64,000 nucleotides of DNA from a virus. The notes beneath the pieces were generated by a model. That model ran no database searches and was not told where the DNA came from. It was given only the letters and a program-made list of their open reading frames with translations. The translations under genes and the position numbers were made by a program. Each line of letters begins with the position of its first letter. The first letter of the stretch is position 1. Location: positions 95,619 through 159,618 of IMG/VR virus record IMGVR_UViG_3300025849_000010. One strand, given 5' to 3'. Positions 11,701 to 31,344 of this stretch are shown piece after piece.

Positions 11701-14479
11701 CAATCATACACATAACTTAGACTTTGGTAGAAGTTCACAAGGTACGCAGCAAATTGGTAAGGTTGGTGTTAAAGGTCCTATTACTGGACAGTTTAACGTT
11801 AACGGTTCGGTATTAGAACTAACGCCAGGCGCCGGTACAGGTTCGGGACAAGGTGCTAAAGTTAACATTTACGGTTCAAATAGTATCGGTTCTGGTAGTG
11901 GCATACAAAGTAGTGAACTAATTGCAAGTTTCTCAGGAGACGCTATTAGACTAAACAAAGATGTTATTACACAAGCAACTAGCTTAGGCACAAATCAATC
12001 AACATTTGATCTTGTTAATGATACTGCAACAACACTTAATATTGGTGGCGCTGCAACAGCTATTGACATCGGTGCATCAAGTGGTTACTTGCACGTTAAC
12101 TCCGCTGACCAAGCAGTTAGTACTACAACAGGTGCGCTACGTGTAGACGGAGGCGGTAGTTTTGGTAAGAACTTGTATGTTGGTGGTAACTTAGTTGCTG
12201 CTGAACTTACACTAACTGGTGCTATTGATGGTAACAGTTACAATGTAGGCGGTATTGAAGTAATTGACACTAACAGACGCTTTATTTCAAGCGGTGGCAC
12301 AACTGGTGAACTTTCAAAAGTACACGGCATTAGCTTTGACTGGGACGGCAACTACGGCGCAGTCGGCGGTTATGTAAACCATGGTATTAGTTCACGTAAC
12401 GAAACTTGGGGAGCTAACGATAGTTTAAGTATTAACTCGTACAACAATGTTAACGTAAGACTTGATACTAACTCTAACAATGCTGCTGCAAGTACATTCT
12501 TCCGCATTAACAATGACGTAAGTCAAACTAATGGTAACATTGTACTAAGTGCAAGAGGCGACGGCAAGGTTGGTATTAACAAAGATCCAAGCGGTACTTA
12601 CAACTTAGATGTTGGCGGTAGCTTTAATGCTACAACTGGTTACATTAACGGTGGTGCAATTTGGACTGACGCTAATGACGGTGATGGCTCAGGCTTAAAC
12701 GCAGACTTGCTAGACGGCTTACATGCATCCAGCTTCCTACGTGTTGATACTGGTGCTGCATTTAGTGGTGGTGTATTTAAGATTAGTGCTCCTGCAACAA
12801 CAATTCAAAACACTGGCGAAGTTAACACATTACAGTTATATCAAGGCAACGGTGCTAATAGTTACGATGCATTTATGACATTCCATATTGGCGGTGACTA
12901 TGCTGTACACTTTGGTTTAGATGGAAGTACAAACGATCTAGCATACGGCGGTTGGTCAGCTGGTGCAGTTGCACATAAAGTATGGCACGCTGGTAATGAT
13001 GGTAGTGGCAGTGGACTTGATGCAGACTTGTTAGATGGACAAGATAGTGCATTCTTCCGTAACGCAAGTAATATTAATGCTGGTACTTTCCCAGATAGAT
13101 TTAGTAGTAGCGAACGTTACAACATTGGATTTATTGACGGTTACGGCGGCGATAGCTACGACAAACTGCGTGTATGGAATAGTGGTTCGTACTCAATAGG
13201 TATGCACAGTGGCCAAACAATGGGTTGGCTAAACGACTATGCTATGACATTCACAATGAATAACGATAGTGATCGTGGCTTTAAATGGCGTCATGAAAGT
13301 GATGGTGTTGCTGATGGTGCTATGGCACTTACAACAGATGGTCGTTTAACAGTTAAGCAGTTCATCTCAGTAGGTAATCAAACTACACGTTACCTAAGAG
13401 AACCAACAGGTAACTACGGTTCGATTCAGATTAGCGGTAGTGGATTTGGTAACTGGGAAGGCTTTAGCATTGACGGTCGTGCAGTATTCATGCATGACGG
13501 TGGCACTGCAACTGGTATCTTCAACGATGTAGATAACGAATGGTTGTTCTACGGTGTACACAACGCACAAACTGAAATGATGCATAATGGTAGTTGGAAA
13601 GTTCAAACACGTTCCAATGGTGCAAACATTGCAGGCGAGCTATATGTTGATAACTGGGTACGCATTGAAAGCAATTCAGGTATTTACTGGGAAGGTGGCA
13701 ACTATGCTGGATGGCACATTTATCCACAAGCAACTAACAGAATCCACATGCGTTCAGCTAACAGCGGAAGTTGTGAAGTTTCTCTTGCTAACAGTGCAAA
13801 CACTATCTATGGTAGATTATATGCAGATGATGCATCACAAGGCTTCCTAAACGAAGATGGCAACTGGGCACTACGTAGCTACAACAACGACGGTGTTTCA
13901 CCTGGTTGGAGATTCTACGAAAACGGTAACGAAAGCTGGACAGGCAACCCAGGTAATGACGTTGGTAAGATTGAATATCACGCTAACAGATTCTACATTG
14001 CATCAGGTGCTAACTCCGATCGTGTTGTACAGTTTAGACGTGATGGAACAGATGTTTCATACGTTGATAACAGTGGTGTTTACCAAGGTACTGCTGCAAG
14101 TGCTAACTGGGCTGACTTGGCAGAGAAATACTTAGCTGACGAAGTTTACGCACACGGTACTGTACTTGCTATTGGTGGCGATGCTGAAGTTACATTGTTC
14201 AAACCAGGCATGAAACTAGCAGGCGTTGTTTCAACACAGCCGGGCTTGATGATGAACCAAACAGACGATAACAGAGATGATCCGATGTGGCCGTTCGTTG
14301 CACTTAAAGGTCGTGTACCAGTTATGATTAATGGTTCAGCTAAGAAAGGCCAGTATATCATTGCAGATCAAGACGGTAAAGGTCGTGCTGTAGACGAACT
14401 AAGTACTATAGCAGAATACACTTTATTAATTGGTACTGCATTAGAAGATGGTACAGATGTAGTTGAAGTGAAGGTATAA
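2717..14479 (+). CDS. Giant tail fibre / receptor-binding virion protein (3920 aa)
   Basis: N-terminal fibre-anchor motif ILHKRN...LDLGEIAINTADGKMF; beta-helix-type motifs (YVSAEYGDDTNDG..KTIKRA; TIMVSTGEY..VSIVGDNLR); GSGL(N/D)ADLLDG motifs; C-terminal ADLAEKY...GVVST.PG...VALKGRVPV resembling an intramolecular chaperone/autocleavage domain. Confidence 0.8.
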   Translation: MANKILHKRNNVSGQEPLAEQLDLGEIAINTADGKMFIKQSDGSIKDVTQQIEKGDTRVVVNDQGNGVVTMEVDGIEKLRVDGTKVYVSDDLEIDDQGSIKLKELGQFGSSSVNIKAPPELEESYDIILPDTDARKGQILQNLGFGQTKWSDPGSLGGNRVYVSAEYGDDTNDGRTGAVKTIKRAAQIASDGIFTPVVDPGESAYAAKDLLEVNRTFLQTEVLNFSTKAFNITYDQAKCERDVGLIIDAIENDLRFGGDAATSHAGAAYSLESSALVKQAQDVATSYGLQRARDLAKSVVTNTPIIDTTQVAVAQQFDGTKTATASEAATVESLGQKVVDFYDNGVGEAPNETQTQDVGLLNAETLIDNNKTFIQNEVIAFLNNKYSGFSFDAAKCSRDTGYIVDAANFDLLYSGNAESHYAGITYLNATASLVRSDQKQETLAGIDYARSLAEKVVLGQQVDYLYQTTVAQNTELTPGTQTEATTVFNNISKVYSILNNGIGTANGVVTTDAGKLNSETLIDQNQDFIKEEVIGYLTTTYPGFSYDQNKCRRDVGYILDAISYDLTHGGNNESIQAALAYYQWTAKDAVNLQLAETRAGITYAIDLAKLVIVNQDPATSYQGIFAQFKDAGNPGDATSQTILTGLGSLIDDIITDGDSTTIGLDIDPNNSVPSAVQDTVNANAILAANKEFIQAEVVAFIEENFGNFNYDPVACERDVGLIVDAVKFDIEHGGDAESIFAGISYYNNVTTGTGEITGDAIEVLRKQLQPTLDAVEYARDLLANVVLQNAVSNLYQSGTTQTFDGTNPSTTSVAQTVFNRANTILTILKNGLGTTNSFTKTTGIGALNTEALLQANTAFLQEEVLGYINNQYPGLTYDQASCRRDVELIVDAIAYDLTHGGNTNSIAAGTAYYRQAAALVVTGQSTETLAGLVHLKELAQKVVRNVTVDVTYSATPQVFDGANPGDVTSANTVGTLADIVIDIVDDGLSPYINITANGALTTDQDILDAGALIASNKLFIQKEVVAYVDGSWINFSSNYNQTTCSRDVGLILDAINFDLTWGGTSNAVAAGIAYFKQSSQLTLQRQLVQTIDGIMHAIRLAQQVVENYPVVSFQNTAAQVTDNLNPGSAEAITKIAELGALIEDIVIDGASATAGVTIFGNGIVPNSNIAVQNAADLIALNRSFIQAEVVSYINTYFTNFTYDTDFCYRDVGLFIDAIQYDLIFGGNERAIEAGKSYYIGNTIVIPGQEFQTVLANRYFQSLVDNILQNIVNKKLYQNVTGQITDPTKIVDGTTLGIVEAEFNTIVDIIENGPTSPNIPTEVEGAFNISYTTIMVSTGEYKEDNPVIIPDYVSIVGDNLRTTIIRPLNANQDIFRIRNGAYLLGVTFKDGLDAFNVPSFTGRYCTAFDDPFDTGVDRTGYIGLRDRPLITQSPYIQNVSIISFLGLSGCLVDGSKVITPNVPRFAIEAENPVFGETPEQGKSMVANAYTMLSFGGIGWRLTNDAYAQIVSCFQIFLGNGCWCQSGAYLSVTNSATNFGLYALRSSGYSANSFVFDRGVIAEVGAQASQQKLITVGTKRTPVNQFVIRLYDDDEYNNLANDITNSFKTIPNIVYFNAGELGELYGDAANYEVVAVGSTTFTVQIGSGKNLGSWVEGGTVDINGAFNPAAVLSASYNNTNGALEIEVTTLPNIGDIVTLTTLTFDGTNYPVNEEGSLSLEDNTITIPGHGLVTGDALTYRRNGNIEINGFADQGLYYVEVLTDDIIRLYQDDSRGFVADIIDVSTGQHYFETQTEEFFIDDIILDADSNKLTHNKYQVLTLAPGTYNFEPGDTIEATTGVYRNKAFVYTYEAATRQLTVSVEKADNSGSLTRIFFDATSIIDRDSSAIPQSNIPVTGFTSRTDLFTAEFTIDPTIVGGVLTNTGALKGTFIRLHRPSIVNSSSHTWEYAGSGTDYNALPQNGGITREEFEQFSDLPGRVYSSGTNELGDFKVGDFIVAENRTGNITFKNTVTVGELSALKLAVSDVVIEAISTDPGLGDNEPGGATDTRLITQNAARSFLANRLGDFIDKNVSTNSVSGAVPQMNAQGLLNSDIIPATRNFSLFTTDKKFGRFNLTDDIPAQEPLQGDIAQERYSRTFFTLSAPIALNEDDVIIELNTGATAIVDEDNGGAATVYLANIEGTFSNNISGNVLNVRGSNTTTYITNTGSSEVRDIQYTMVQDSSSQFLRYLPSGAAFVNGQTITAANSKTQGVITGQVEGVALALDLGNISTGNGYVPSTGSQTYKGVVLSNVSGTGTGAIADISVTNGKVTNVDLTRGGSGYAVGNALTATVDQLGGQNTQDFQVSILGVDNRVFVELLAGKFVATTSSNDYTEDGNAVVTTVPLGNTTLTAFNADTIGNGGNVDYPTSRITINSHIFDNGDVVNYASSPNPAIGGFIQGESYFVKVVDANTIELYNRYDLNAANKVIFTSSSTGTHAFIINYVDTRKDRIYAQDHGFTNGQAFRFVGANPPTGMASGGYYYAGTVSQNTFSVHEFQQDAENSVNGVTQGAINFIQTGSGSADFIHQNITIYGEVNTSGNVETNWALTGSANVDASNIVSGVISTSRLAAVGTANSDTYLKGDSSWDYATRTVRTALNSPLNITGNFYTSGGQNFYFKNTQFDIDRTDGTLGNQSFTNLGVAAFSKAQFNVNSGEVELKAGVLDAGTLDGLDSQYFLDPGNLLNPVPVSRGGTQIDQYIAGDMIYATSPTTLNRLPIGSQGAVMVVDELGNPAWSNDVAPFVEDTNNFGVSRPLEIRHDVTNTPAVGIGVGMQFQVETANNNREVGGTIDAVASDVTFGSEDFSFKFNLMAAGFLAERMVLDSLGNLAIDGDLNVDGGDIKTTKTSATVYDTTVTSLSIGRAATSVTIGADKTGELRVRNATLVVGGDSIETQPVDAKIKAPNSLGTNKQGPDLTIQGGASTGSGVAGSVFIDTGASGSSGSTSNTQVNRVEISGSDNHTHNLDFGRSSQGTQQIGKVGVKGPITGQFNVNGSVLELTPGAGTGSGQGAKVNIYGSNSIGSGSGIQSSELIASFSGDAIRLNKDVITQATSLGTNQSTFDLVNDTATTLNIGGAATAIDIGASSGYLHVNSADQAVSTTTGALRVDGGGSFGKNLYVGGNLVAAELTLTGAIDGNSYNVGGIEVIDTNRRFISSGGTTGELSKVHGISFDWDGNYGAVGGYVNHGISSRNETWGANDSLSINSYNNVNVRLDTNSNNAAASTFFRINNDVSQTNGNIVLSARGDGKVGINKDPSGTYNLDVGGSFNATTGYINGGAIWTDANDGDGSGLNADLLDGLHASSFLRVDTGAAFSGGVFKISAPATTIQNTGEVNTLQLYQGNGANSYDAFMTFHIGGDYAVHFGLDGSTNDLAYGGWSAGAVAHKVWHAGNDGSGSGLDADLLDGQDSAFFRNASNINAGTFPDRFSSSERYNIGFIDGYGGDSYDKLRVWNSGSYSIGMHSGQTMGWLNDYAMTFTMNNDSDRGFKWRHESDGVADGAMALTTDGRLTVKQFISVGNQTTRYLREPTGNYGSIQISGSGFGNWEGFSIDGRAVFMHDGGTATGIFNDVDNEWLFYGVHNAQTEMMHNGSWKVQTRSNGANIAGELYVDNWVRIESNSGIYWEGGNYAGWHIYPQATNRIHMRSANSGSCEVSLANSANTIYGRLYADDASQGFLNEDGNWALRSYNNDGVSPGWRFYENGNESWTGNPGNDVGKIEYHANRFYIASGANSDRVVQFRRDGTDVSYVDNSGVYQGTAASANWADLAEKYLADEVYAHGTVLAIGGDAEVTLFKPGMKLAGVVSTQPGLMMNQTDDNRDDPMWPFVALKGRVPVMINGSAKKGQYIIADQDGKGRAVDELSTIAEYTLLIGTALEDGTDVVEVKV
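3411..6440 (+). repeat. Seven ~160-aa protein repeats with a conserved (Y/F)(D/N)xxxCxRD(V/T)xxx(I/V/L)DAxxxD(L/I)xx(G/S)G core
   Basis: Cys codons at 3431, 3902, 4367, 4859, 5360, 5846 and 6335, spaced 155-167 codons apart. Confidence 0.9.
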
Positions 14480-14482
14480 TTT

Positions 14483-14857
14483 ATGGGAAACATGACAAGA
14501 GCCTCGGCAAGAGATTACTTTACCGGAAATGCCGGGGCTCAGTTACGAGGATTTGACAAAACTATTAACTTTGCTGCTACAGTGTATGTTACAGGAAACG
14601 TGGACGGTGGCCGTGCTGGAACTGCATATGGTAATAGACGTTATGAATACGTAAATGCACCTAACAGTGATTACAACGGAAATGTTTATCCAAATACTAC
14701 ACAAGTAGATGCAACCCAATTAATTGATCAAGCACTTGATGCAATACAACGAACTTGCGATTTAATTGAAGGTCGTATTAGCAATAGTTACTTTGATTGG
14801 AGAATATGTCACGCAAGTTGTCATTATAGCTGCCACGGATCAAGAGGGAGAAGATAA
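14483..14857 (+). CDS. Putative radical-SAM substrate/precursor protein A with C-terminal (CHxS)3-RGRR
   Basis: Ends WRICHASCHYSCHGSRGRR; starts 3 nt after the fibre stop; lies upstream of nine rSAM genes. Confidence 0.75.
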   Translation: MGNMTRASARDYFTGNAGAQLRGFDKTINFAATVYVTGNVDGGRAGTAYGNRRYEYVNAPNSDYNGNVYPNTTQVDATQLIDQALDAIQRTCDLIEGRISNSYFDWRICHASCHYSCHGSRGRR

Positions 14858-15029
14858 TGGCAGGATTAAGTCATGCACAATTAGAAGCTCGGTACTATGG
14901 TAATGCATATACAAGAATACGCACATTTGATAAAACTATTAACGTAGCAGCTACAGTATATTATGCGCGATATAATGGTAGTGGCCAAGGAACTGCATAT
15001 GGTAATAGACGTTATGAATACGTAAATGC
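14618..15029 (+). repeat. Exact 41-nt direct repeat between the two precursor genes (14618-14658 and 14989-15029)
   Basis: ggaactgcatatggtaatagacgttatgaatacgtaaatgc is identical in both copies. Confidence 0.9.
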
Positions 15030-15240
15030 CGGGCAAGGTGCCTTTGCTAATACAGATATTCCAAATGGTGTAGGTGACAATTTATTAATAAGAGCAGGTG
15101 ATATACAAACATTTGCTTCAAATGCAATCAGCAGAACAGTAAATGGCATAGAAGGAAGAATTACAAATTCGTATTTCGACTTTAGAATATGCCATTCAAG
15201 TTGCCATTATAGCTGCCACGGCAGCAGAGGGAGAAGATAA
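14857..15240 (+). CDS. Putative radical-SAM substrate/precursor protein B, paralog of A
   Basis: Ends FRICHSSCHYSCHGSRGRR; shares FDKTIN.AATVY, GTAYGNRRYEYVNA and IEGRI.NSYFD with A; TAATG stop/start overlap. Confidence 0.75.
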   Translation: MAGLSHAQLEARYYGNAYTRIRTFDKTINVAATVYYARYNGSGQGTAYGNRRYEYVNAGQGAFANTDIPNGVGDNLLIRAGDIQTFASNAISRTVNGIEGRITNSYFDFRICHSSCHYSCHGSRGRR

Positions 15241-16302
15241 ATGATAGGCGAAAGTTTTTACTATATCAGTAATAAAAAATACTTAGGACGATCTACTGCA
15301 ATGCTTTCGGCATTATCAGAAAGTCCGTGGAGCGGAGTTCAATCAAGACGTATTAGCATAATAATGCCAGATGGACATAGTGCAGTGCAAGAAAGTTATG
15401 CATCGTCGTTAAGTAATGATTATCCATTAGCAAACGCTGAAGATATGATAACATTTGCTAATTATAGCGATATTGATTCTTGGGAATATCTCAATAACAA
15501 TACTAAGGAATTTTTATTATTTGAATCAGCGCATGAGTTTTTGAAGATGTATGCAAAGTATACAGCTTCGCTATTAAAAACAACAACTAACAAAGATGTT
15601 AAACAAGTTGTTAAGGAATTTATTGTATTAGCAACTACTAGAGATGTAACATACTCGACAATGGGCGATTACAATGAAGGCGATATCAATGCAGCAGTAG
15701 AGGAAGTATTTGCAGAAAACGTATTCTATGATATTCCTAATGCAACCAGTAAGCACTGGGGTTACGATATTCTTTTCTTTATTAATGACAAGTACAATGA
15801 AAATGAAACCTATGCAGAAATTAATGTAACAACAACTGCATTTTTAAGAGAAAAGTTTACAGTACATAGTGATAAAATGATTCATGAAGTTATTAGTATG
15901 TTACAATCTAAAATTGGTTATGTAAGTGTTATTAACAATATTATTGATTGGTTTAATAATAACGGAAATACAGAATGGAATAGAGCTGAGTTTGTGAAAG
16001 ATGTATTTCAAAATACGAATCGCATGCAAGCACTATACAGATTACGTGACTTTTGGAACGATGTAGGTTCTAATAAAGAATTAATGACATTAATTGACGG
16101 GCATGACGAATGGGAATACGAAGAAGTATATAAAGAGTTTGCTAGAACTATTCCAATTGTCATACAAATTGCAGAGGGCGGATTTAATTTTGCAAATAAC
16201 GAAGCACTAAGAAGTGCATGGAGCGAGGTAGAGTTTTTCTATAAACGTAAAAGTCGTATTCCTTATTTGCTGTTTAAAATATTACCACTTGTACCGGAGT
16301 AA
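15241..16302 (+). CDS. Hypothetical protein in the rSAM cluster (353 aa)
   Basis: Long ORF abutting precursor B; no recognisable motif and no Cys. Confidence 0.7.
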   Translation: MIGESFYYISNKKYLGRSTAMLSALSESPWSGVQSRRISIIMPDGHSAVQESYASSLSNDYPLANAEDMITFANYSDIDSWEYLNNNTKEFLLFESAHEFLKMYAKYTASLLKTTTNKDVKQVVKEFIVLATTRDVTYSTMGDYNEGDINAAVEEVFAENVFYDIPNATSKHWGYDILFFINDKYNENETYAEINVTTTAFLREKFTVHSDKMIHEVISMLQSKIGYVSVINNIIDWFNNNGNTEWNRAEFVKDVFQNTNRMQALYRLRDFWNDVGSNKELMTLIDGHDEWEYEEVYKEFARTIPIVIQIAEGGFNFANNEALRSAWSEVEFFYKRKSRIPYLLFKILPLVPE

Positions 16303-16304
16303 AA

Positions 16305-17012
16305 ATGACACAAGAAAATTACACACTGCCACTAAGTCCAACAGATTTAGCAGAAATATATAAAATAAAAACAAGCTCGGAAGATTACGTTCTCAAGGTT
16401 GATTATTTTAAAAGTAAGGAAGTACTGTCAGTAAAACATATACTCGTATATATTGCTAACACTAACTTTAAAGTACAGTTTGAAGGCATTGACGATGAAT
16501 TAATAAATGAATATATAATTTCTAATTTTATGGTTGATTGTCCGTTACTTTCTAGATACATTACGTTAATTGCTAAACGTAAACTAGGACAGGAATATAA
16601 TCAAGTTGACCAAGCATTAAATACTATAATGTCTGATGCTGACATTGATTCATATTTAGAAAAGAATGGCGAATTATTTGACGACTTGTTAGATAAACTA
16701 AAACATGTTACACTGTTTTGTTTAGATCAAGCTGGCAAATATGCCGACAAGTACAAAGAATTTATACCAGAAGAGATTGAACGTGCAGATGAAGAAACTC
16801 AAATTGGACTAAATATTGTATATATTGCAACATACTCGTTGGACTTGTTGTATTTGTTAGGTAATAAATTTGGTCCGTGGCCTACTAATAAATTAAATGT
16901 TAGAGTGTTTAATGATGTTAGTAAGTATCAAGGAGCAGACCTATATAATACATTACTAAAATATGGTGTTGCAACTAGTATGTTAGAATTATTTGACGAG
17001 GAATCAGCATAA
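16305..17012 (+). CDS. Hypothetical protein in the rSAM cluster (235 aa)
   Basis: SD-like GGAG upstream; TAATG overlap with the next gene. Confidence 0.7.
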   Translation: MTQENYTLPLSPTDLAEIYKIKTSSEDYVLKVDYFKSKEVLSVKHILVYIANTNFKVQFEGIDDELINEYIISNFMVDCPLLSRYITLIAKRKLGQEYNQVDQALNTIMSDADIDSYLEKNGELFDDLLDKLKHVTLFCLDQAGKYADKYKEFIPEEIERADEETQIGLNIVYIATYSLDLLYLLGNKFGPWPTNKLNVRVFNDVSKYQGADLYNTLLKYGVATSMLELFDEESA

Positions 17013-18193
17013 TGACAATGCAACAATCATATTGTAAACAGATGAAGTATAGTGGGCCAGAAAGTCTACCTCCTTCACACGCCCAGAAGTTTGACGTATT
17101 AATTAACTTTGAAGGCCTTACTGGCTGCGAATATGGTTGTTTAGGATGTTTTGTTAACAAGAATCAAGACGTTACTACAATGAATCAAATGCTAACAACT
17201 GCAAAAGAACTTGCAGATGGTGTAAAGCGTACAGGTTTAAACTTACGTGAGTTTGTTGTAGGTCCGACAGATTTATTCTCTGCGTCAAATACTGATAGCA
17301 TTCTTAATAATACTATTATACAAGATATAATGCGCGAACACACTAATGCACGTATTGCTACACCTAGTAAGATAGACGGCGTGAGCATGGAAAGGTTGCG
17401 AGAAGTATTTGCAATACTTGATGATCCTTCTAAGTATAGAGACGAAATGATCATTGAGTTTATTATGCCAGTTGGCGATGTTGATCGTATACTAAATGAC
17501 GAAGAATACTTTAAAGATATTAAATCAAAATTAGAATTCTTTAAATCCGAAACTCCCAAGAAAATTGACTGGAGTTGGACATTACAAGCAAGTAATGTTA
17601 TGCAAAAACATCTAACTAAAGAAAACTATAATAAACTGCTATATAAGATTCTTGATGAATATGAAACTATTCTAGAAATGAACCCAGCGTTCTCTAGAGC
17701 ACCGAGTGTATTGCACCAGCGTAAGAACTTAGTAGCATGGAATAACTTCCTAAAAGAAGTAGTAGATCAAGACAATTTTAAAGACGTTACAATGAGTATG
17801 GCTAACTTATATTGTAACTCCATGAACTTCATAGGGTTAACTGTTGTTCCTGGATTAGAGACGCCACGTGTATTTTTAAATGTAATGTTACACGAACAAG
17901 CATTCTTTACACAGCATAGGGATTTAGAAGTAACAGGACTAAGTTTTGAAGAAATTCTAGTCAAGAGGGATCACTTAATAGCACAAGGGTTAGCTAAGTC
18001 GTCTAAAGTTAAGGATTGTGCAGATTGCAAATATGCAGTAGCATGTGCAAACAGACTAATATTCCAAGCACAAGATGCAATGAACATGCACGAATGTTTA
18101 ATGCCGCTAGAAGTATTAGAACTGTATAATCCGTTTGTTACTAGTAACGAACAGTGGAACGACGATGCTTTAAAAATCGTCAATGCTCGTTAA
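17012..18193 (+). CDS. Atypical radical SAM protein 1 (GPTD type)
   Basis: GCEYGCLGCFV (CxxxCxxC), VVGPTD, C-terminal CADC-x5-C-x16-C. Confidence 0.8.
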   Translation: MTMQQSYCKQMKYSGPESLPPSHAQKFDVLINFEGLTGCEYGCLGCFVNKNQDVTTMNQMLTTAKELADGVKRTGLNLREFVVGPTDLFSASNTDSILNNTIIQDIMREHTNARIATPSKIDGVSMERLREVFAILDDPSKYRDEMIIEFIMPVGDVDRILNDEEYFKDIKSKLEFFKSETPKKIDWSWTLQASNVMQKHLTKENYNKLLYKILDEYETILEMNPAFSRAPSVLHQRKNLVAWNNFLKEVVDQDNFKDVTMSMANLYCNSMNFIGLTVVPGLETPRVFLNVMLHEQAFFTQHRDLEVTGLSFEEILVKRDHLIAQGLAKSSKVKDCADCKYAVACANRLIFQAQDAMNMHECLMPLEVLELYNPFVTSNEQWNDDALKIVNAR

Positions 18194-19211
18194 CCTAAAC
18201 TCAACTCCTACAGGATTTAACAATTATATAGAAGGCATAAGCCCTAAGGATAATAACTTTCTTAGGACAGAAGTTCATGCTGATATATTACATGGATGCA
18301 GTCAAAAGTGTCCAGGGTGTTTCATTCCTAGAAAAAATCTTACTAATGCTGATCATCTTACAACACTATGCGATATATTGGAATCTAGTGCATATACACC
18401 TGATGATGTTGTAATAGGTCCTACTGATATATTTGATGCTGAAAACTTTTGGGACTTAATGGACCATCCTAGTATGAAACGTTTATACAGTATTGCAGCA
18501 CTAAGTTTTAACTCAACACTACTACAGGACTACGACACTGTACTTGCCAAACACACTAAGATTTGGAGTCTTTACGAAGGATTGGATCGTACGCCTGATA
18601 TAGATTTTAAAATAGTACTTGATATTACTAGATATTTACAAGGCGATATTGAAGACATGTGTCGCAAACTAGAACTTTTTAAACAAGGTAGTGTACAGTT
18701 TAGAGTAAACTATTACCCGGGTATATTTGATCGTGTGAGCTATAATGATTTATGTGATATGATTAAAGAAGACTTCAATGCTCCAGTAGTTATATTGCCA
18801 GGTTTCTTAACAGACAGAAATAGTCGAGGTAAAGTTAGTAAATTACTTCCGATGTTTTTAGACGAGCTACGTAAACAAGATATAAGACCCGAATACAAAC
18901 AGTTATACACGATGTTTGATGCAAACTTTAATAGTCACGGATGTACCAATTATAGTTTTTACAACGGCAGCTTGTATATGAATCCATTTGTGTTTGACGG
19001 AATATTGCAGCGTACACAAGAATTTAAAGTAGACAATCTTAATACTAAAAACTTTTTAGCTGAAAATTTATCATATGCAGCATCTACTAAAGAATGTGAA
19101 AGTTGCGAATACTTAATGAGCTGTGCAGAGCGCAATGTATTGTTCTATATGAAGTCGAGAAATTTAACAGAGTGTGTTACAGTAAAGGAGTATACAAATG
19201 CCGGTCATTAA
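18183..19211 (+). CDS. Atypical radical SAM protein 2 (GPTD type)
   Basis: GCSQKCPGCFI, VIGPTD, CESC-x5-C-x16-C. Confidence 0.8.
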   Translation: MLVNLNSTPTGFNNYIEGISPKDNNFLRTEVHADILHGCSQKCPGCFIPRKNLTNADHLTTLCDILESSAYTPDDVVIGPTDIFDAENFWDLMDHPSMKRLYSIAALSFNSTLLQDYDTVLAKHTKIWSLYEGLDRTPDIDFKIVLDITRYLQGDIEDMCRKLELFKQGSVQFRVNYYPGIFDRVSYNDLCDMIKEDFNAPVVILPGFLTDRNSRGKVSKLLPMFLDELRKQDIRPEYKQLYTMFDANFNSHGCTNYSFYNGSLYMNPFVFDGILQRTQEFKVDNLNTKNFLAENLSYAASTKECESCEYLMSCAERNVLFYMKSRNLTECVTVKEYTNAGH

Positions 19212-20379
19212 AAATAACTTGTATTATGAGCTTACTACAGAAACGCAAACTAAGCCAGTAAGTGCAGTAAAAATACAGCTTGATGTGTTAGACGGGTGTG
19301 TACACGCTTGCCCTGGGTGTTTTGTACATCGTAGAGGAAATGCACCTGAAGTTGATCATTTAAAAGATTGCCGAAACTTTGTAAAACGAATTACAGATGT
19401 AGGTGTTTTAGTTGACGAAATACTCATAGGCCCAACTGACTGTTTATCTAGTGAAAACTTTTATGAAGTAATGAGCAATACTGATTTGTTAGCAATGATA
19501 AATGAAAACTCTCCTATACTTGCTTTTACTACTACATTTTTAGAAAAGGATCTAACACATTTAGATCGTTGGATTACGTTTTTACATGACAATGTGAATA
19601 CTGACACTGAAATAGAAATTGGCATAGCAACTGATCCTATGCGATATAAAGATATACTTTATATACAGCAATTAAAACGCTGTATTGCATATGTCGACCA
19701 GCATTTAAAACATGAATGTACATATACGTTTATTGTTAATATTAGAAACTATGACCTAGACTACGAGCAAATACATGATTTTGTAGTGAAGCAATTTGAT
19801 ACAACAATTGACTTTATTCCAAGTGTAAGTCGCAGTCATAAAGCAAGTATCATACTACCTACACTAAATCAATTCAATGAATTTTTTGAAGCATTACCAG
19901 AAGATACTCATTTAAATAATATTATGGTAGATCACACACATGCTGGGCATAATTATACCGTATTAAATTTTAAAGGAGGACAGTGGTATCTAAGTCCGTT
20001 CCTTTATGAAAATATGGCATTGTATGATAATATGTTTGCAGTAAACAATCTAGACGAAGCATATGATCTTACTGTGTCACAAGTAGATCGAGCTAAAGGA
20101 ACAGTGTGCGAAAACTGTGATTTATTTTTTAGTTGCTACAATAGAAAAATTATTTTATTACGTGACTACTTGGGTACTAAAGAGTGTATAGCGCCTAAGC
20201 AAAATATGTTAAAAAATATACATAACTATAATAAAAGTGCTGCTGAAATGTATGACTGGACAGGATATACTGTTGAGGGTGATAAGCAAGGATATCGTAA
20301 AAAATTCTTAATAACTAAAGACGGCGATGAAAGATTAGATGAAATAAAAAAGGTGTATCATGTCAATCGTAAAGGATAA
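19198..20379 (+). CDS. Atypical radical SAM protein 3 (GPTD type)
   Basis: GCVHACPGCFV, LIGPTD, CENC-x5-C-x16-C; SD AAGGAG. Confidence 0.8.
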   Translation: MPVIKNNLYYELTTETQTKPVSAVKIQLDVLDGCVHACPGCFVHRRGNAPEVDHLKDCRNFVKRITDVGVLVDEILIGPTDCLSSENFYEVMSNTDLLAMINENSPILAFTTTFLEKDLTHLDRWITFLHDNVNTDTEIEIGIATDPMRYKDILYIQQLKRCIAYVDQHLKHECTYTFIVNIRNYDLDYEQIHDFVVKQFDTTIDFIPSVSRSHKASIILPTLNQFNEFFEALPEDTHLNNIMVDHTHAGHNYTVLNFKGGQWYLSPFLYENMALYDNMFAVNNLDEAYDLTVSQVDRAKGTVCENCDLFFSCYNRKIILLRDYLGTKECIAPKQNMLKNIHNYNKSAAEMYDWTGYTVEGDKQGYRKKFLITKDGDERLDEIKKVYHVNRKG

Positions 20380-21454
20380 TTATTGGGAAGCAACAATGGG
20401 TCATAAAGACTATAATATCAGTGTAGGTGATGCACATGATATAAAAGTAAACATGACAGTTGACGTCCTTGACGGGTGCATACATGCTTGTGAAGGATGC
20501 TTTGTTAATCGCAGAAGACAGCAAGCATCTAATGATCAGTTTTCCAAAGTACTAGCTGCACAAAAAATGTTTAATCAAAATAACATTCGATTTAGCAGCA
20601 TAATACTTGGTCCTACTGATGTCTTTGGTAATTTAAATATACAGGACGTTTTAAAATTTGATAGTTTTAAAGAAGTAGTAAGTAACTGCACCACTGTCGG
20701 AATGATTAGTACACTGCTTAACGATGATACTCATATCAATCCTATAATAGATGGCTTCAACGCTATACCTAAATGTGAAGGTTTCTTATATGACTTTCAA
20801 GTAGTTATTGATGTTAAACGAGCACTTGATCCAGAATATAGAAAGAATCACTTAGCACGTATACATGATGTTTTAAATAGATTTACTGATCCCTTAAACT
20901 TTACTATAATTTTTAATATGGATCAAGACTTTGCTGAGTTTGGAAATCTAGCAGAAATATGTCGTGTAATAAAAGAAGAGTACGACACTATTGTAGAGCC
21001 TATTCCTAGTTATCAGCGTTATGGTAAAGGAAAAATACACAACGATATTATTAGGGCGTGGGTTGATATAATAGAAGACACGTTCACTAAAGAAAATCAA
21101 GAATACCTAGCCATGACAATAGCTGACAAAAATCAAGGTGGCGCACTTGAATTAAATTATACATATAGTGCAGGAGAATTTTATTCAACTCCGTTTGTTT
21201 ATGAAGTTGCACTTATACGTGACGAAAAGTTTAGAGTAAAAGATCCAACAGATATTAAAAGTTGGACTAGCTTAAAAACAGACTTGTATATAGATCAGCT
21301 TGCGTATTCCCCTAAAACGCTGCATTGTGAAACATGCAATCGTCGTGAAATATGTTTGAAAAAACACGTATTAAGTTATATGGAGCATTTTGACTTTACG
21401 GAGTGTGTGTATCCTAGAGAAGTATTAAATGAATATAGGCCGTTAACATGTTAA
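20360..21454 (+). CDS. Atypical radical SAM protein 4 (GPTD type)
   Basis: GCIHACEGCFV, ILGPTD, CETC-x5-C-x16-C. Confidence 0.8.
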   Translation: MSIVKDNYWEATMGHKDYNISVGDAHDIKVNMTVDVLDGCIHACEGCFVNRRRQQASNDQFSKVLAAQKMFNQNNIRFSSIILGPTDVFGNLNIQDVLKFDSFKEVVSNCTTVGMISTLLNDDTHINPIIDGFNAIPKCEGFLYDFQVVIDVKRALDPEYRKNHLARIHDVLNRFTDPLNFTIIFNMDQDFAEFGNLAEICRVIKEEYDTIVEPIPSYQRYGKGKIHNDIIRAWVDIIEDTFTKENQEYLAMTIADKNQGGALELNYTYSAGEFYSTPFVYEVALIRDEKFRVKDPTDIKSWTSLKTDLYIDQLAYSPKTLHCETCNRREICLKKHVLSYMEHFDFTECVYPREVLNEYRPLTC

Positions 21455-22575
21455 AAAATGATTGGCAAACTTATCTGCAAAATAATAAACAATCTCTTTC
21501 ACCAGAGGGGTTTATAGATCCTGCTGATCAAAACAAGATAAAAATTCAGTTAATGCTTGAAATATTAGAAGGTTGTGCTTACAACTGTTCGGGCTGTTTT
21601 GTTAAAAGACGAAAAAACTTTGGACAGGGATTAGGGCTAGACTATGCTGCACAACTTGTTGACGAGTTAACTGATCAATATGTATTAGATGATATTATTG
21701 TAGGACCTACTGATTTCTTCTCCAGCGGAAATATAATACAAGTCTTAGAAGATCCTAGATTTAAAAAGATAGTAAACGCATTACCCGAAGACGGCGGACT
21801 ACAGCATAACTGTTCAATAGACTTTTTTATAGGAAATGATCGAGTAAAAGAAATTATTACTTATATTGAAAATAGCTATCTAAAGGATCGTCCGTTTGAT
21901 GTACAAATTGCAGTAGACTTGCATATGTTAGATAATCCACATGTACACGATTTAATAAGTGAACGCCTAGAAGCTATGGAAAATAGTTCTGTAGAATATG
22001 AAGTAAGCCTGCTGTGTAATATAACTCAAGACATTGACGACGATGTATTAGACAAAATTGAAACTGTTAGAAACAAGTGGAATACTGTTGTTGAATGGGG
22101 GCCTAGTTTAGTACGTGCCATGACAAATAGGCCTGATAAAATGTTAGGTATGATACAAGGATGGAATGAAAGTATAGGAAAGGTTGCTAGCATAGATGAA
22201 AAGCGTTTTACACAAAACTTTATATGGCAACAGAGCGATACTAGTCATAAAAACTTTAATGAAGTAATTGTTACAGTTAATAATGACCAGTTATATATAG
22301 TTCCGTTTTTATATGAAAATTCTCCTATATATCATCCTAGTTTCGAAGTACCGATAGGCGAAAATATATTAAACAGTATTTTTGATAAAAGGCACGAATT
22401 GCAATTAACACAATATGCTAACATTCCTAACTTAGTATGCAACGGATGTAAGTATGTAGAAAATTGTAGCTCTAGATTAATACCAACGCTAATCACAGAT
22501 GTAGTTAAGCATAACCAGTGTCTAATAAATAAAAACATAATGGCATTATACGACAATATAGGATATAATAAATGA
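21448..22575 (+). CDS. Atypical radical SAM protein 5 (GPTD type)
   Basis: GCAYNCSGCFV, IVGPTD, CNGC-x5-C-x17-C. Confidence 0.8.
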   Translation: MLKNDWQTYLQNNKQSLSPEGFIDPADQNKIKIQLMLEILEGCAYNCSGCFVKRRKNFGQGLGLDYAAQLVDELTDQYVLDDIIVGPTDFFSSGNIIQVLEDPRFKKIVNALPEDGGLQHNCSIDFFIGNDRVKEIITYIENSYLKDRPFDVQIAVDLHMLDNPHVHDLISERLEAMENSSVEYEVSLLCNITQDIDDDVLDKIETVRNKWNTVVEWGPSLVRAMTNRPDKMLGMIQGWNESIGKVASIDEKRFTQNFIWQQSDTSHKNFNEVIVTVNNDQLYIVPFLYENSPIYHPSFEVPIGENILNSIFDKRHELQLTQYANIPNLVCNGCKYVENCSSRLIPTLITDVVKHNQCLINKNIMALYDNIGYNK

Positions 22576-23780
22576 GCTGCGGAACAGAAATACTAAAAGC
22601 ATTAATGCCGGATAACATTACTGATGATCACTTGTTGGACACAAAGGCACAGCAAGAAGCAAATGCAGTAACACACGCAATATTAGAGCGTAAGCGTCCT
22701 CTTATTGGCGAAATTGAAATAACACTTTTTGAAAACTGTCCTATTAATTGCGACTTTTGCTTCCATGATAAAGAAAGCGAAGTAGGCATGACATATGAAG
22801 AAATGCTAATGAAACTTCCTCTGGTAGAAGCACACTGTAAAAAGATGCAGGGCAAAGTACATGCTATGCAGTTTAATATGGTAGGTGGAGAGCTGTTTCA
22901 AGACCGTGCAAAAGATACACTGTATCCTATGTTTTTTGATTTAATGGTAGAAATTAAAAAAATAACAGATAGGTACGGACACGTTATACAAGTAGTTTGG
23001 GTTAGTAACTTTTTGTTTAAGTATCACGAAGATGTACGCAAACTGCTAGACGATCTAAATGCAGTAGACATACCAAGTAAACTGATTGCTAGTTATGATC
23101 TAAGTGGACGTCCTACAGGCGGACAATACACTAAAAATATCGAACGTTTTAAAGATTATATTTCTACTATCAATTTAGTAGCAACAACAGACAGTATCAA
23201 TGCATTGTTTGCAGGAGATGATTATTTCAATTATCTATATGAAAACTTTGATTTGTTCTTTGATGATTTTATTCCAGATCCGGGATACGACCATTTAGTA
23301 CCAGCTGATTCGCTTTACTTAAAGTTTATGAAATACATTGCTGATAATTATCCAGAAGTAAATCCGTATAAAGAACTTATAGAAAATGATGTTAATCAAA
23401 TGCATTGTATGAGCTTAAACAAGTTAACTATTTTTCCGGATAACACAACTGCAAATTGCCGTTGGCATCGTTATACACGCAATGATTTTCAACACGCATA
23501 TATTAGAAAAGACAACACTAACCTCATGCAAGCATACATGGACGAAGTTGGTTGTTTAAGTTGTCAATATTTTGATCGTTGCGGCTTCCGTTGTTATACG
23601 CAATGGGACTGGAAGAATCGTGCTAGGGATTTACCACCTGGCATTTGTCCTATAAAAGAGTTCTTTAATTATGTAGGGGATACTGATCAAACATCATCTC
23701 TTCCTCATAATAAGACCTTACGTCGGGCACCATTCCCGTCTGAGATGAAGGATCAGGAAGGCTTATATGGTCGAGAATAG
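22572..23780 (+). CDS. Radical SAM/SPASM-domain protein 6
   Basis: CPINCDFC, VGGELF, SPASM-like HC...IFPD...NC...CLSCQYFDRCGFRC...CP. Confidence 0.85.
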   Translation: MSCGTEILKALMPDNITDDHLLDTKAQQEANAVTHAILERKRPLIGEIEITLFENCPINCDFCFHDKESEVGMTYEEMLMKLPLVEAHCKKMQGKVHAMQFNMVGGELFQDRAKDTLYPMFFDLMVEIKKITDRYGHVIQVVWVSNFLFKYHEDVRKLLDDLNAVDIPSKLIASYDLSGRPTGGQYTKNIERFKDYISTINLVATTDSINALFAGDDYFNYLYENFDLFFDDFIPDPGYDHLVPADSLYLKFMKYIADNYPEVNPYKELIENDVNQMHCMSLNKLTIFPDNTTANCRWHRYTRNDFQHAYIRKDNTNLMQAYMDEVGCLSCQYFDRCGFRCYTQWDWKNRARDLPPGICPIKEFFNYVGDTDQTSSLPHNKTLRRAPFPSEMKDQEGLYGRE

Positions 23781-24084
23781 CATTGTAAGTTTCTTTATCT
23801 TCGCTATAGGGTTTAAAGTACGGATCATTGCCGGCTAATAAATCTTTATCATCTAGTAGCTCGTAGAAATCGTATTTAAAATCTAAACTTATCCAATAAG
23901 CATAACAGATTGCTACGAAATAACTTTTAGCAGGATACACCCATTCGTCTACACGTTCGTAGAAATGTTTCACTGCCCAAATAACACTGTCTTCTTCTGT
24001 ACGAATGTCGACTTTGTTTAAGTCGTCAGTAAATTCTGTTGCAGTACTATTAAATAGTTGTAATCTAGTCTTCCAGTTCAGCAT
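23665..24084 (-). CDS. Hypothetical protein in the rSAM cluster (139 aa)
   Basis: Start overlaps the end of rSAM 7; last gene of the minus arm; aromatic/acidic composition. Confidence 0.65.
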   Translation of the reverse strand: MLNWKTRLQLFNSTATEFTDDLNKVDIRTEEDSVIWAVKHFYERVDEWVYPAKSYFVAICYAYWISLDFKYDFYELLDDKDLLAGNDPYFKPYSEDKETYNAILDHISLPDPSSQTGMVPDVRSYYEEEMMFDQYPLHN

Positions 24085-24982
24085 ACCAGTCTATTAGTCC
24101 CTTATATCCATTACAGCCGTTGTTTAAGTCTTTAACATATCGATAATGTTCAGTTAAGCATTTACCGTAGTATTTACAATTATGACATATTTCACTGACG
24201 TTTTCTGTAGACTCTTTTGAAGCCCACAACAAGTATTCGTCAAACGTATTATATTCTTCAAAAAACTCATTATCGTTCTTGTCAAATTCAAGCACACCGA
24301 ATTTAGCATCAGGCGTAATGTATACATGATCGTTACTAAATGCATTACGATTGCCTTCTAATACATCTTCTAAATCATCTACGTTAACAAAATCAAACTG
24401 CTTTAATACAGGAGATTCTATCCATTGCTGCACATGTTGTTCAAAATCTCTATGTGTAACAGGGTGTGCATTTGCTTGATTAGTTGAGTAAGGTTTTATT
24501 TCTACACACTTAACATTTTGCATCATATTAAATGTATTAATCATTAAGTCTACATTAGTAGCTAATACCTTAGGACTTGCTAAAACTAGTACACTAATAT
24601 CCTTAGGAAAAAGCATCATATTCTGTAATACTTTATCACTTTGTTCTCGAGCTTCGAAGTCATAGCTTACACTAATATGCACATCATCATCTAAAAAGAA
24701 ATCAGGCCTTGCACTTAAATTAGTATTGATGTTAATTCTACCACTAAAATATTTTCTAATAACAGTTTTCAAACTATAAAAATATTCTTTATCTAGCATA
24801 CCTATTTCGCCACCGTATAAATCTACGTGTGTAATCGGTACAGACACTTCACTAAGACGCTTGTCTAGATCTTCCGGAGTAATACGCTTTTTATTACCTA
24901 GTTGGGCTGTAGTAAGATAACAAAAGTCGCAGCGAAAGTTACAAAAATATGTAGGATTGATACTAACAGTAAATTCAGTCAT
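24065..24982 (-). CDS. Radical SAM protein 7 with a C-terminal Cys cluster
   Basis: NPTYFCNFRCDFCY, LYGGEI, CHNCKYYGKC...C. Confidence 0.85.
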   Translation of the reverse strand: MTEFTVSINPTYFCNFRCDFCYLTTAQLGNKKRITPEDLDKRLSEVSVPITHVDLYGGEIGMLDKEYFYSLKTVIRKYFSGRININTNLSARPDFFLDDDVHISVSYDFEAREQSDKVLQNMMLFPKDISVLVLASPKVLATNVDLMINTFNMMQNVKCVEIKPYSTNQANAHPVTHRDFEQHVQQWIESPVLKQFDFVNVDDLEDVLEGNRNAFSNDHVYITPDAKFGVLEFDKNDNEFFEEYNTFDEYLLWASKESTENVSEICHNCKYYGKCLTEHYRYVKDLNNGCNGYKGLIDWYAELED

Positions 24983-26009
24983 ATTCCCTCACATAAGGAG
25001 TAACGCTATCAGGGTCTTGATTATTCAACTTTAAAATAGTTGGAGCAAGTTGTTTCATTTCAAAACAATGTTCTTCTACTTGACCTTCACGCTTGTGATC
25101 TCTAACAGTTTTACGACAGCCGTTACATATTCTAAACATAGGACACGTTAGGCATGCCTGCTTCATTGAAATTAGTTCTGGCGCATCTTGCAACGGTGTA
25201 CTAAATCCTCCTGACATTTCATATTCAAAGTCGATAGGATAATCTTTGTCGTCACCTAAACTACCGCAACTATAATAGTCGCCGCCTGGATTGAACGCAC
25301 GTATGCCTTCGTCACAATGTCTGTTTTGAGGACAAGTAGTTGTATCACTTTGTAGCCTACGAACCATTTGTTGTGTATTGTATTCCCAGTCCATTAGTCC
25401 AGCGTTGTAAATATCAATGTATGCTTTATATATTTTACTAAGACGATATGTATAGCCCTGCTCGCCGCTTGCCATTGCATAGTTTACTTTGCAAACTACA
25501 TTCATCTTTTTAGCAAGCTCTACTGTTTTAATAATAGTATGCTCGTTCATGTCGTCAATAACAGCAATAAACTCAGGACGATAACCACAAAGTTCTAACA
25601 TTTTATCTGATACTTTCCAGAAGTCTTCTTCTGTAAATATTGAAAAGTCACCTTTAAGTCTACCAGCACCGTATTGAAAACTAGTCGAGATTCCCATACG
25701 TGGGTGATTGAATAAATCTATCCACTTTTCGGGTTTAACGTAAAACGGCCATAAGTTGCTAGTAAAGCTAATAGTTGCCGGCATATCGTGTGTATCGAGA
25801 TATTCTATTATTTTCCAATAATATTCTGGAGACATCATGAGTGGATCACCACCGTTAACAATAATTGTATTAGTGTCGGGATATCTATCTAAAAATCTAA
25901 AGATATAATCGTGATCTAATTGTCCTGCATTATTAGGATCGATCTTAGTCGAAGAACAAAATGTACATTTGAAGTTACATGCTTCAGTGGGTTTAATAAT
26001 AAGATCCAT
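24975..26009 (-). CDS. Radical SAM/SPASM protein 8
   Basis: KPTEACNFKCTFC, NGGDPL, C..C..YYSCG..CLTCPMFRICNGC..C. Confidence 0.88.
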   Translation of the reverse strand: MDLIIKPTEACNFKCTFCSSTKIDPNNAGQLDHDYIFRFLDRYPDTNTIIVNGGDPLMMSPEYYWKIIEYLDTHDMPATISFTSNLWPFYVKPEKWIDLFNHPRMGISTSFQYGAGRLKGDFSIFTEEDFWKVSDKMLELCGYRPEFIAVIDDMNEHTIIKTVELAKKMNVVCKVNYAMASGEQGYTYRLSKIYKAYIDIYNAGLMDWEYNTQQMVRRLQSDTTTCPQNRHCDEGIRAFNPGGDYYSCGSLGDDKDYPIDFEYEMSGGFSTPLQDAPELISMKQACLTCPMFRICNGCRKTVRDHKREGQVEEHCFEMKQLAPTILKLNNQDPDSVTPYVREYD

Positions 26010-27037
26010 TACGGCGCTAACTCCAACATTAGTGTTTTAGGAGCAGGACATATATCGCCTTCCCATGCAAGTTTGTAACAATCGCCACCGCAGTAAAACT
26101 GCACAGGACATTCATAACATTTAGAATTTCTATTCATTTCAGTTGCAATATTACACATTCGACTTGGATGAAATAATACATGATCTATGTCATCAGAAAT
26201 GTGTGCATAGTGTGCAGTTGGCGCACTATTGGGACAACCTGCAATGCGACCGTCTGCATTTATAGTAAACAGTTTTTGTTCACAGTCTCTACAGAATGTA
26301 CTTGCACGAGTAATGCCATCCTCAAACTTCATATATACACTTTCAATTGTAGAGTTGTATATTTTATCTCTAAGATTTCTTGCTTGTGTTTCCTTGTGCA
26401 ACTGTAAGTACCAATCTTGTATTTCTATATTAGTAGGAAATATCTTAGGATTGCGCACAGCATTGCCGTCTGAAGTTAATCTTTCAAAGTCAACTTCTTG
26501 TATACCTAAGTCGATCAAATATTCGATAACATCTGCAGGATTTTCTTGTATCATATCTTTACTTAAACTAACAAAACACTTGATGTCTACTCCATCTGCT
26601 GTTAGTTGACGCACATTATCTTCCCATAGTTTTTGCTGTTTAGCATTAGCCCAACGTATAAACGGATCGTAACTTGTACCTAAACGTTTGTGTAGTATTC
26701 CGTATATTAGATCAAGTTTCTCGTCTGTAAGTTTATATGTTAAGTTAGTGGTCATGCCGTAGTAAGCTCTGTCACCCCAAACATCATAAGTCAGTTTGTG
26801 AAACAGTTTCATATCTTCTACGGGTGCAAGCATAGGTTCACCGCCGTGGAACTCGAAAGCTATTCCGCTATTGGGCATTTTAGCATACAGTCTATTAAAA
26901 AAATCTGCTGTAGCACGGGGATCAAAATAAATCTTACGTCCGTTGATGCCATTAGTAAAACAATGAGAACAGTTTAAATTACAAGTCTCAGTTGTTTTAA
27001 TATAAGACATATACTGTGTGGCGTTATGTACGGTCAT
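26009..27037 (-). CDS. Radical SAM/SPASM protein 9 (anSME/peptide-maturase-like)
   Basis: KTTETCNLNCSHCF, FHGGEPML, CRDC..TINADGRIAGCP..CYECPVQFYCGGDC..CP. Confidence 0.9.
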   Translation of the reverse strand: MTVHNATQYMSYIKTTETCNLNCSHCFTNGINGRKIYFDPRATADFFNRLYAKMPNSGIAFEFHGGEPMLAPVEDMKLFHKLTYDVWGDRAYYGMTTNLTYKLTDEKLDLIYGILHKRLGTSYDPFIRWANAKQQKLWEDNVRQLTADGVDIKCFVSLSKDMIQENPADVIEYLIDLGIQEVDFERLTSDGNAVRNPKIFPTNIEIQDWYLQLHKETQARNLRDKIYNSTIESVYMKFEDGITRASTFCRDCEQKLFTINADGRIAGCPNSAPTAHYAHISDDIDHVLFHPSRMCNIATEMNRNSKCYECPVQFYCGGDCYKLAWEGDICPAPKTLMLELAP

Positions 27038-28456: not shown

Positions 28457-28472
28457 ATAATATATAGTAGTT

Positions 28473-31270: not shown

Positions 31271-31278
31271 AGTACAAG

Positions 31279-31310: not shown

Positions 31311-31344
31311 CTTTAACAAATGCAATGCTAGGAAATAGGATACT

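Follow-up and report, generated by a model that had tools for sequence, protein, structure and literature searches.

We describe here five tandem genes in a 64,000-nucleotide stretch of viral DNA (the window, positions 95,619 to 159,618 of the IMG/VR record IMGVR_UViG_3300025849_000010), whose products form an atypical family within the radical S-adenosylmethionine (SAM) enzymes. All five lie on the plus strand, in the order paralog 1 (17012-18193, 393 aa), paralog 2 (18183-19211, 342 aa), paralog 3 (19198-20379, 393 aa), paralog 4 (20360-21454, 364 aa) and paralog 5 (21448-22575, 375 aa), with successive genes overlapping by 7-20 nt. In a MAFFT alignment of the five, paralogs 2-5 are 19-22% identical to paralog 1. 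A search of the phage record with paralog 4 matches the other paralogs at 23-27% identity with E-values from 1e-17 to 1e-26, which shows that they are true paralogs and not proteins of chance resemblance. Three motifs are common to all five, namely G-C-x3-C-x-G-C-F (x being any residue), G-P-T-D and C-x2-C-x5-C-x16/17-C, together with an Asn six residues after the Asp of GPTD. The spacing before the last Cys is x17 in paralog 5 only and x16 in paralogs 1-4. On the whole, 20 columns of the five-way alignment are invariant, including L36, G38, C39, C43, G45, C46, F47, G84, P85, T86, D87, N93 and D156 in the N-terminal half and P225, P285, F298, C336, C339, C345 and C362 in the C-terminal half (paralog-1 numbering). 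The original prediction, made from the sequence alone, had described five tandem paralogs with these motifs, and the open reading frames (ORFs), the MAFFT alignment and the searches of the phage record agree with it in every detail that can be checked.

The family is small. A profile of the five paralogs searched against 1.84 billion representative proteins (E ≤0.001) gives only 219 matches, without drifting into the rest of the superfamily. Of 149 profile matches, 139 have Gly before the third Cys and 147 have the x16 spacing. In an alignment of 139 sequences the three N-terminal Cys (C40, C44 and C47) are invariant, the residues G46, P85, T86, D87, N93, R220 and the four C-terminal Cys are conserved in at least 90%, and there is no additional conserved Cys column. 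The members are found in large phages and on contigs of Bdellovibrionota metagenome-assembled genomes (MAGs), and their neighbours in the ESM Atlas are clusters of viral "hypothetical protein". The family hidden Markov model (HMM) scores 258, 237, 277 and 264 bits on paralogs 1, 2, 3 and 5, respectively. The Pfam radical-SAM model PF04055 (cut-off 29.5 bits) picks up paralogs 3 and 5 only, both below the cut-off, at 17.1 and 15.7 bits in a protein scan and at 19.4 and 17.0 bits in a genome scan; 11 other genes of the same record are above it. Just 29 of the 139 family members match PF04055 at E <0.01, and none matches the SPASM models PF13186 and TIGR04085. For the five paralogs and the 139 members, NCBIfam gives nothing beyond weak N-terminal NrdG-like matches, and a sequence profile search of the PDB returns no real match, only a weak N-terminal one to GDGT-MAS. 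Our literature searches give no account of the family; for Ralstonia and Burkholderia phages there are gene lists only, and for Campylobacter phages 11-12 radical-SAM genes that are left unexplained. P0100 and P0105 are longer family members (about 520 aa), with some 200 additional residues at the N-terminus. This extension has no Pfam match and no link by BLAST or hhalign to the 353-, 235- and 139-aa proteins of the gene cassette described below.

We then consider the predicted fold. An AlphaFold2 model of paralog 4, with the 139-sequence alignment as input, reaches pLDDT 94.8 and pTM 0.92. It has six strand-helix units, a β-hairpin (strands 264-270 and 273-276) and helices 299-358 bearing the four C-terminal Cys, and the N-terminal Cys triad lies in the loop after β1, between strand 29-35 and helix 58-73. 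This layout is the partial (β/α)6 TIM barrel of the radical-SAM superfamily, followed by a C-terminal part of SPASM type, with a hairpin and then a helical Cys region packed on the barrel. The best structural match, by Foldseek and re-alignment with VIA, is the enzyme anSME (4k38_B, Z 15.8 over 301 residues, root-mean-square deviation (rmsd) 4.3), and the alignment extends to the C-terminus. An independent VIA search of 48,161 chains also has anSME at the top (Z 15.1), then ChlB (14.1), CteB (13.3), SkfB (12.5), TigE (12.5), SuiB (11.8; 11.8-13.2 over both searches) and PqqE (11.8), and these seven best matches are all SPASM or twitch enzymes modifying proteins or peptides. In total, more than 15 solved radical-SAM enzymes are matched with Z 8-16. 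The earlier proposal of a distinct, uncharacterised radical-SAM subfamily defined by these motifs is therefore well founded on both sides: its 219 matches are covered by no Pfam or NCBIfam model, and the radical-SAM partial barrel is adopted in the paralog 4 model with its matches to anSME.

Each of the five paralogs represents an orthogroup of its own. A maximum likelihood tree of 84 members, obtained by a quick search only, resolves five clades with 99-100% support each, and every window paralog has one ortholog per related locus, with 35-89% identity, the other copies being 17-36% identical (mostly 20-28%). The one-to-one orthologs in other phage loci are 56-89% identical for paralog 1 (orthogroup 1, OG1), 47-82% for paralog 2 (OG2), 53-85% for paralog 3 (OG3) and 35-77% for paralog 5 (OG5); paralog 4, the copy modelled above, belongs to OG4. 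At 18 positions, all motif residues included, the same residue is found in every orthogroup (about 30 distinct sequences each). The ratio of nonsynonymous to synonymous substitution rates (dN/dS) against close relatives is about 0.06-0.16 for all five, the values being approximate as dS is saturated. The orthogroups, the purifying selection and the conserved positions together show that the duplications are old and that each copy has been kept for a function, as had been proposed from the strong divergence of the five proteins.

The elements that usually contact SAM are altered in this family. Gly precedes the third Cys in all five paralogs, as predicted, but the aromatic residue that the original prediction ascribed to canonical enzymes at this position is usual rather than universal. 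In the same phage record the position holds Met in three genes above the Pfam cut-off and His in one cassette enzyme, so that Gly alone is weak evidence for new chemistry. As for GPTD, it lies at the C-terminal end of strand β2 (77-87 in the model), which is the site of GGE in canonical enzymes, where GGE orients the SAM amino group (PMC6231123). The claim that GPTD stands in place of GGEP thus holds for the end of β2, but with an ambiguous register, since two profile alignments differ by three residues: in the comparison with the cassette's four canonical enzyme types P-T-D is aligned on G-G-E with a probability of 71%, whereas the alignment with rsam7 (one of these enzymes) alone shifts GGE three residues downstream, onto x-A-x before the conserved Asn. 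By hhalign the family and the rsam7 orthologs are aligned in the N-terminal part with a probability of 95% (E 3.6e-8). Under either register there is no GGE in the family, and the combination of GGE with a hydrophobic or aromatic residue before the third Cys, by which the superfamily is recognised (PMC6231123), is absent from it. One may speculate that two changes offset one another near the adenine and methionine of SAM, namely Gly instead of a hydrophobic residue and the larger P-T instead of G-G. Altered SAM chemistry in the family is possible.

Such changes might also mean that the five proteins lack catalytic activity or work without SAM, as Fe-S scaffolds or chaperones that would offer the canonical enzymes their substrate or supply them with electrons. 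The loss of GGE and of the hydrophobic cluster-motif residue would be expected of such proteins, as would the fact that the radical-SAM models of Pfam and NCBIfam barely detect the family. Yet the Cys triad has no exception in 139 sequences, Asp87, Asn93 and Arg220 reach at least 90% conservation and the Asp at the end of β4 (D156 in paralog 1) is invariant among the five, these being positions where SAM-contacting residues would usually lie. Strong purifying selection on all five and a full barrel modelled with high confidence also argue against inactivity, and we regard this explanation as very unlikely.

The C-terminal Cys can be compared with the auxiliary clusters of SPASM enzymes. The seven-Cys SPASM motif (C-x9-15-G-x4-C, gap, C-x2-C-x5-C-x3-C, gap, C) is not found in the family, where only C-x2-C-x5-C-x16-C is conserved; the fourth Cys position, that of the SPASM C-x3-C, is variable, and no Cys column is conserved upstream. 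In the canonical enzymes of the cassette, the invariant C-x2-C-x5-C...C aligns to C317, C320, C326 and C348 of anSME, which we take to be the ligands of auxiliary cluster II (Aux II). The enzyme rsam7 (24065-24982, minus strand) has canonical SAM motifs and, by its Cys positions, a single four-Cys C-terminal motif with x14. The family HMM places its own hairpin and C-x2-C-x5-C on the rsam7 orthologs, which have exactly the same set of four C-terminal Cys and no others C-terminally. From the Cys alignments to anSME and rsam7 and from the lack of a further conserved Cys column, the family looks "Aux II-only": judged by motif, its four C-terminal Cys are the counterparts of the Aux II ligands, and the ligands of auxiliary cluster I (Aux I) are not conserved. 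Motifs and secondary structure would suggest the following cluster geometry and SAM pocket. Each paralog would keep the N-terminal [4Fe-4S] site and one auxiliary [4Fe-4S] site matching SPASM Aux II, with Aux I lost, and the SAM-contacting elements would have been rebuilt, with Gly for the hydrophobic residue before the third Cys and G-P-T-D-x5-N for GGE at the end of β2.

This points to a possible origin of the family from the cassette's own single-auxiliary-cluster enzyme of rsam7 type. The rsam7 gene is present in every examined cassette with sufficient flank, and its products are 44-64% identical across distant phages. In addition, a second type of protein is seen in Bdellovibrionota (for example at 4339-5394 of locus L101 and 4382-5431 of locus L099), which scores lower (86-110 bits) and has C-x3-C-x-N-C, no GPTD and x15. 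With Asn and x15, this type seems to stand between rsam7 (Phe, GGE, x14) on one side and the atypical family (Gly, GPTD, x16) on the other.

The five genes belong to a larger cassette. On the plus strand, two small proteins of 124 and 127 aa (14483-15240), which are the likely substrates of the cassette, end in (C-H-x-S)x3-R-G-R-R. They are followed by two conserved ORFs of 353 and 235 aa (15241-17012), which travel with the family in marine loci according to BLAST co-occurrence, then by the five paralogs, and then by a sixth radical-SAM gene (22572-23780). The latter encodes a canonical SPASM enzyme with C-x3-C-x-F-C, GGE and the full C-x2-C-x5-C-x3-C (phrog_1802, E 2.7e-24). The minus strand carries a conserved 139-aa cassette protein (23665-24084, phrog_20737), found too in the phages RSF1, pPa_SNUABM_DT01 and Atu_ph07 and in Bdellovibrionota loci, and then rsam7, the SPASM radical-SAM enzymes rsam8 and rsam9 (24975-27037, detected by PF04055 and by phrog_1802 with E 1e-53 to 1e-56), and a cupin/JmjC-like protein with a 2-oxoglutarate (2OG)-Fe(II) oxygenase (27024-28014; Pfam Cupin_2 and JmjC_2, and 2OG-FeII_Oxy_5 with E 9e-18). 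A NUDIX gene is also found on this strand. The convergent genes for the sixth radical-SAM enzyme and the 139-aa protein share a 116-nt overlap (23665-23780). As to the 235-aa ORF (16305-17012, plus strand), its stop shares one base with the start codon of paralog 1, and in most other loci it stands directly before OG2; the AlphaFold model of its product has pLDDT 92.2 and finds no Foldseek match in the PDB.

The same gene set recurs in 59 related viral loci, and further carriers of the cassette are the Ralstonia phages RSF1 and RSL2, Burkholderia phage FLC6, Pseudomonas phage pPa_SNUABM_DT01 and Agrobacterium phage Atu_ph07, as well as large contigs of Bdellovibrionota MAGs. In phage loci with enough flank, including RSF1 and pPa_SNUABM_DT01, the tail-protein gene is upstream of the family, and proteins with Cys-His tails are also encoded in several Bdellovibrionota MAG loci. 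Over 35 aligned homologs the last 16 residues of the tail are invariant save the x positions. In three lineages (L055 5143-6246, L059 5948-6475 and L045 5737-6123) the Ser of C-H-x-S is Asn or Gln; the strictly kept parts are the Cys, the His and the final RGRR. No cassette with sufficient flank lacks the canonical enzymes, and their conservation is much higher than that of the atypical family, rsam8 being 53-69% identical across the Ralstonia, Burkholderia, Pseudomonas and Agrobacterium phages and contigs of genome collections, Bdellovibrionota MAGs included.

The window is the final 64 kb of a 159.6-kb IMG/VR record with a CheckV completeness of 44%, and it comes from a T4-like jumbo phage of a marine lineage. 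It encodes a tail sheath stabiliser of gp15 type, for which the closest cultured relatives are Phosso, Atu_ph07 and PA5oct with 31-35% identity, and a megablast of the region against cultured phages gives zero matches. Almost without gaps, the plus strand runs from a 3920-aa fibre-like gene through the two small genes, the 353- and 235-aa ORFs and the five paralogs to the sixth radical-SAM gene. Scans for sigma-70 promoters and terminators find them at chance level only, and the T4 late-promoter motif is not enriched. The 3920-aa fibre-like protein (2717-14479, plus strand) contains seven repeats of about 160 aa, each with one conserved Cys within a motif of Y-D-x3-C-x-R-D-V-G-L-I type, and Atu_ph07 likewise has a giant structural gene immediately upstream of its cassette. 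Outside the window, at about 19,700-35,000 of the record (genome coordinates), about ten further radical-SAM genes form a second cluster. Eight to nine score above the Pfam cut-off, and in several the third Cys is preceded by Met and the N-terminus is long and extended. If the window is counted in, this half-complete record has at least 19 radical-SAM-like genes.

Overall, the family is accessory to the cassette, with 0-6 copies per locus or genome. Among complete genomes, Atu_ph07 has no copy, RSF1 has one and pPa_SNUABM_DT01 has two; the number is 2 to 6 in marine loci and 1 to 2 in those of Bdellovibrionota. This variation bears on two further proposals. The first is that the five proteins are the Fe-S subunits of one obligate hetero-oligomeric complex, as the overlapping and probably translationally coupled genes might suggest, together with a gene set and order that are largely conserved in the marine clade. 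However, the copy number is one in RSF1, two in pPa_SNUABM_DT01 and in reduced loci, where OG1 and OG3 are retained, and three, four or six in other lineages. In most other loci OG5 precedes OG4, the reverse of the order in the window, and no hetero-pentamer is known among the related SPASM enzymes in the PDB. With zero copies in the complete Atu_ph07 genome, such a complex fits poorly and is to be doubted strongly. The second proposal assigns to each paralog a residue of its own in the invariant (Cys-His-x-Ser)x3 repeat. In its favour, the nine radical-SAM enzymes of the cassette equal in number the nine Cys, His and Ser residues of the repeat, and the orthogroups are old and non-redundant. 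The fit is again poor: the Cys, His and RGRR of the tail stay constant while the family varies from 0 to 6 copies, so that we hold a one-to-one mapping to be very unlikely, as we do the five-part complex. The four canonical enzymes, always present and far better conserved, are therefore the better candidates for the core chemistry of the repeat.

What we favour, at roughly an even chance, is that the five proteins are active tailoring maturases derived from an rsam7-type enzyme, and that they form an optional extension of the cassette acting on its substrate proteins. The cassette itself probably modifies the Cys-His-tailed protein of the virus particle. In terms of mechanism, a cassette modifying proteins that end in (Cys-His-x-Ser)x3-RGRR would operate in large phages and on the Bdellovibrionota MAG contigs, and in the marine T4-like jumbo phage lineage an ancient expansion would have produced five non-redundant orthogroups, presumably expressed as one translationally coupled unit behind the giant fibre gene. 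With SAM cleaved and a protein as substrate, each orthogroup would have one distinct task, adding its own modification, initiated by hydrogen abstraction, to the cassette substrates on top of the core chemistry of the four canonical enzymes. When paralog 4 is predicted in complex with SAM, two 4Fe-4S clusters and the tail protein of 127 aa, the score is 0.01 and the mark 0.32, which speaks neither for nor against binding. A stronger version, in which the rebuilt pocket and the Aux II-only domain together give the family its own mode of SAM binding or use and the five orthogroups work sequentially as an assembly line, building a cross-linked or cofactor-like structure near the Cys-His tail that is needed for particle function, seems unlikely to us.

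Several observations weigh against the favoured explanation. Atu_ph07 has the tail protein, the four canonical enzymes, the cupin and the 139-aa protein, yet it has zero family members, and several other cassette loci have no member within 10 kb. In the phage record L066 (an IMG/VR contig of 291,658 bp, 90% complete) a lone member at 9896-10948 occurs with no rsam8 homolog and no threefold Cys-His repeat pattern, showing that the link of the family to the tail is not absolute. GGE is missing and the register around it is ambiguous, which weighs on the predicted binding and cleavage of SAM. Also, no recognisable peptide-recognition (RRE) domain is seen in the paralogs, and no substrate site can be named. 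Some of these observations would suit a different target instead of the proteins with Cys-His tails, for instance the giant fibre or some further virion protein, a small molecule or a nucleotide; shared regulation would then be the only reason for the placement in the cassette. The lone member of L066 and the cassettes without the family are of this kind, and the SPASM and twitch folds matched with Z 10-12 include the small-molecule enzymes MoaA, BlsE and viperin. Against such a target stand the near-universal linkage to tail-protein genes across phages and Bdellovibrionota MAG contigs and the action on proteins or peptides of all seven best structural matches in the independent search; we hold it to be quite unlikely, a shade below the assembly line.

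The enzymology of radical-SAM proteins rests on a few SAM-contacting motifs, and this well-conserved natural family departs from two of them simultaneously and retains the "second" SPASM cluster alone, which makes it a ready test case for the roles of those motifs and clusters. It is also the component that varies in a so far unstudied cassette, which occurs in jumbo phages infecting Ralstonia, Burkholderia, Pseudomonas and Agrobacterium, in numerous marine phages and on Bdellovibrionota MAG contigs and appears to tailor a virus-particle protein post-translationally. As cultured phages with 0, 1 and 2 copies exist, the contribution of the family can be measured by mass spectrometry of virion proteins.

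Finally, we compare the family with known systems. By structure it comes nearest to anSME and to the SPASM maturases of RiPPs, and by logic to the HXS system, but its sequence places it in neither group. In the HXS antiphage system, the His-x-Ser repeats of HxsA are matured by the radical-SAM enzymes HxsB and HxsC with HxsD, with a reported +8 Da shift on an S-H-R-S-S motif by a modification of undefined chemistry (PMC13128918). The logic is alike, in that several radical-SAM enzymes serve one protein with short repeats. The substrate here, however, has a Cys before each His and an RGRR end, and the genes lie among phage virion genes, not in a bacterial defence locus; moreover, the HxsB and HxsC models match neither the five paralogs at E ≤1 nor the 139 members at E ≤0.001. 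The resemblance to anSME (PDB 4K36-4K39), the founding SPASM member, which acts on a protein substrate at Cys or Ser, extends over almost the full length (Z 15.1-15.8, about 300 residues, rmsd 4.3-4.4), with the barrel, the β-hairpin and the Cys-bearing helical domain in the same order. The identity is only 9-10%, and anSME has C-x3-C-x-Y-C, GGE and Aux I, whereas Gly and GPTD are found in the family and its Aux I ligands are not conserved. The anSME/AtsB enzymes act on the C/S-x-P/A-x-R motif of sulfatases, and since their NCBIfam models match none of the five paralogs or the 139 members, the resemblance is structural only. Twitch enzymes such as SkfB (Z 12.5), BtrN and MoaA have a single auxiliary cluster in a shortened SPASM-like domain, and by its motifs the family would likewise have one such site. 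Twitch domains keep the Aux I site (PMC6231123), whereas the family by motif retains the Aux II ligand set, which would be the opposite truncation. Among phage proteins, phrog_31457, without annotated function, is weakly matched by all five paralogs (E 1e-6 to 2e-11), but the matches are partial and the family as defined here is not captured by it. The nearest relative by profile is rsam7 (phrog_1802), with the same four-Cys motif and hairpin in the same gene cluster; it differs in keeping C-N-F-x-C-x-F-C, GGE and x14 and in being always present in the cassette, whereas the atypical family is optional and variable in copy number. What is new here is the recognition of this family, accessory to its cassette and divided into five orthogroups, as a GGE-less and apparently Aux II-only branch that would derive from rsam7.

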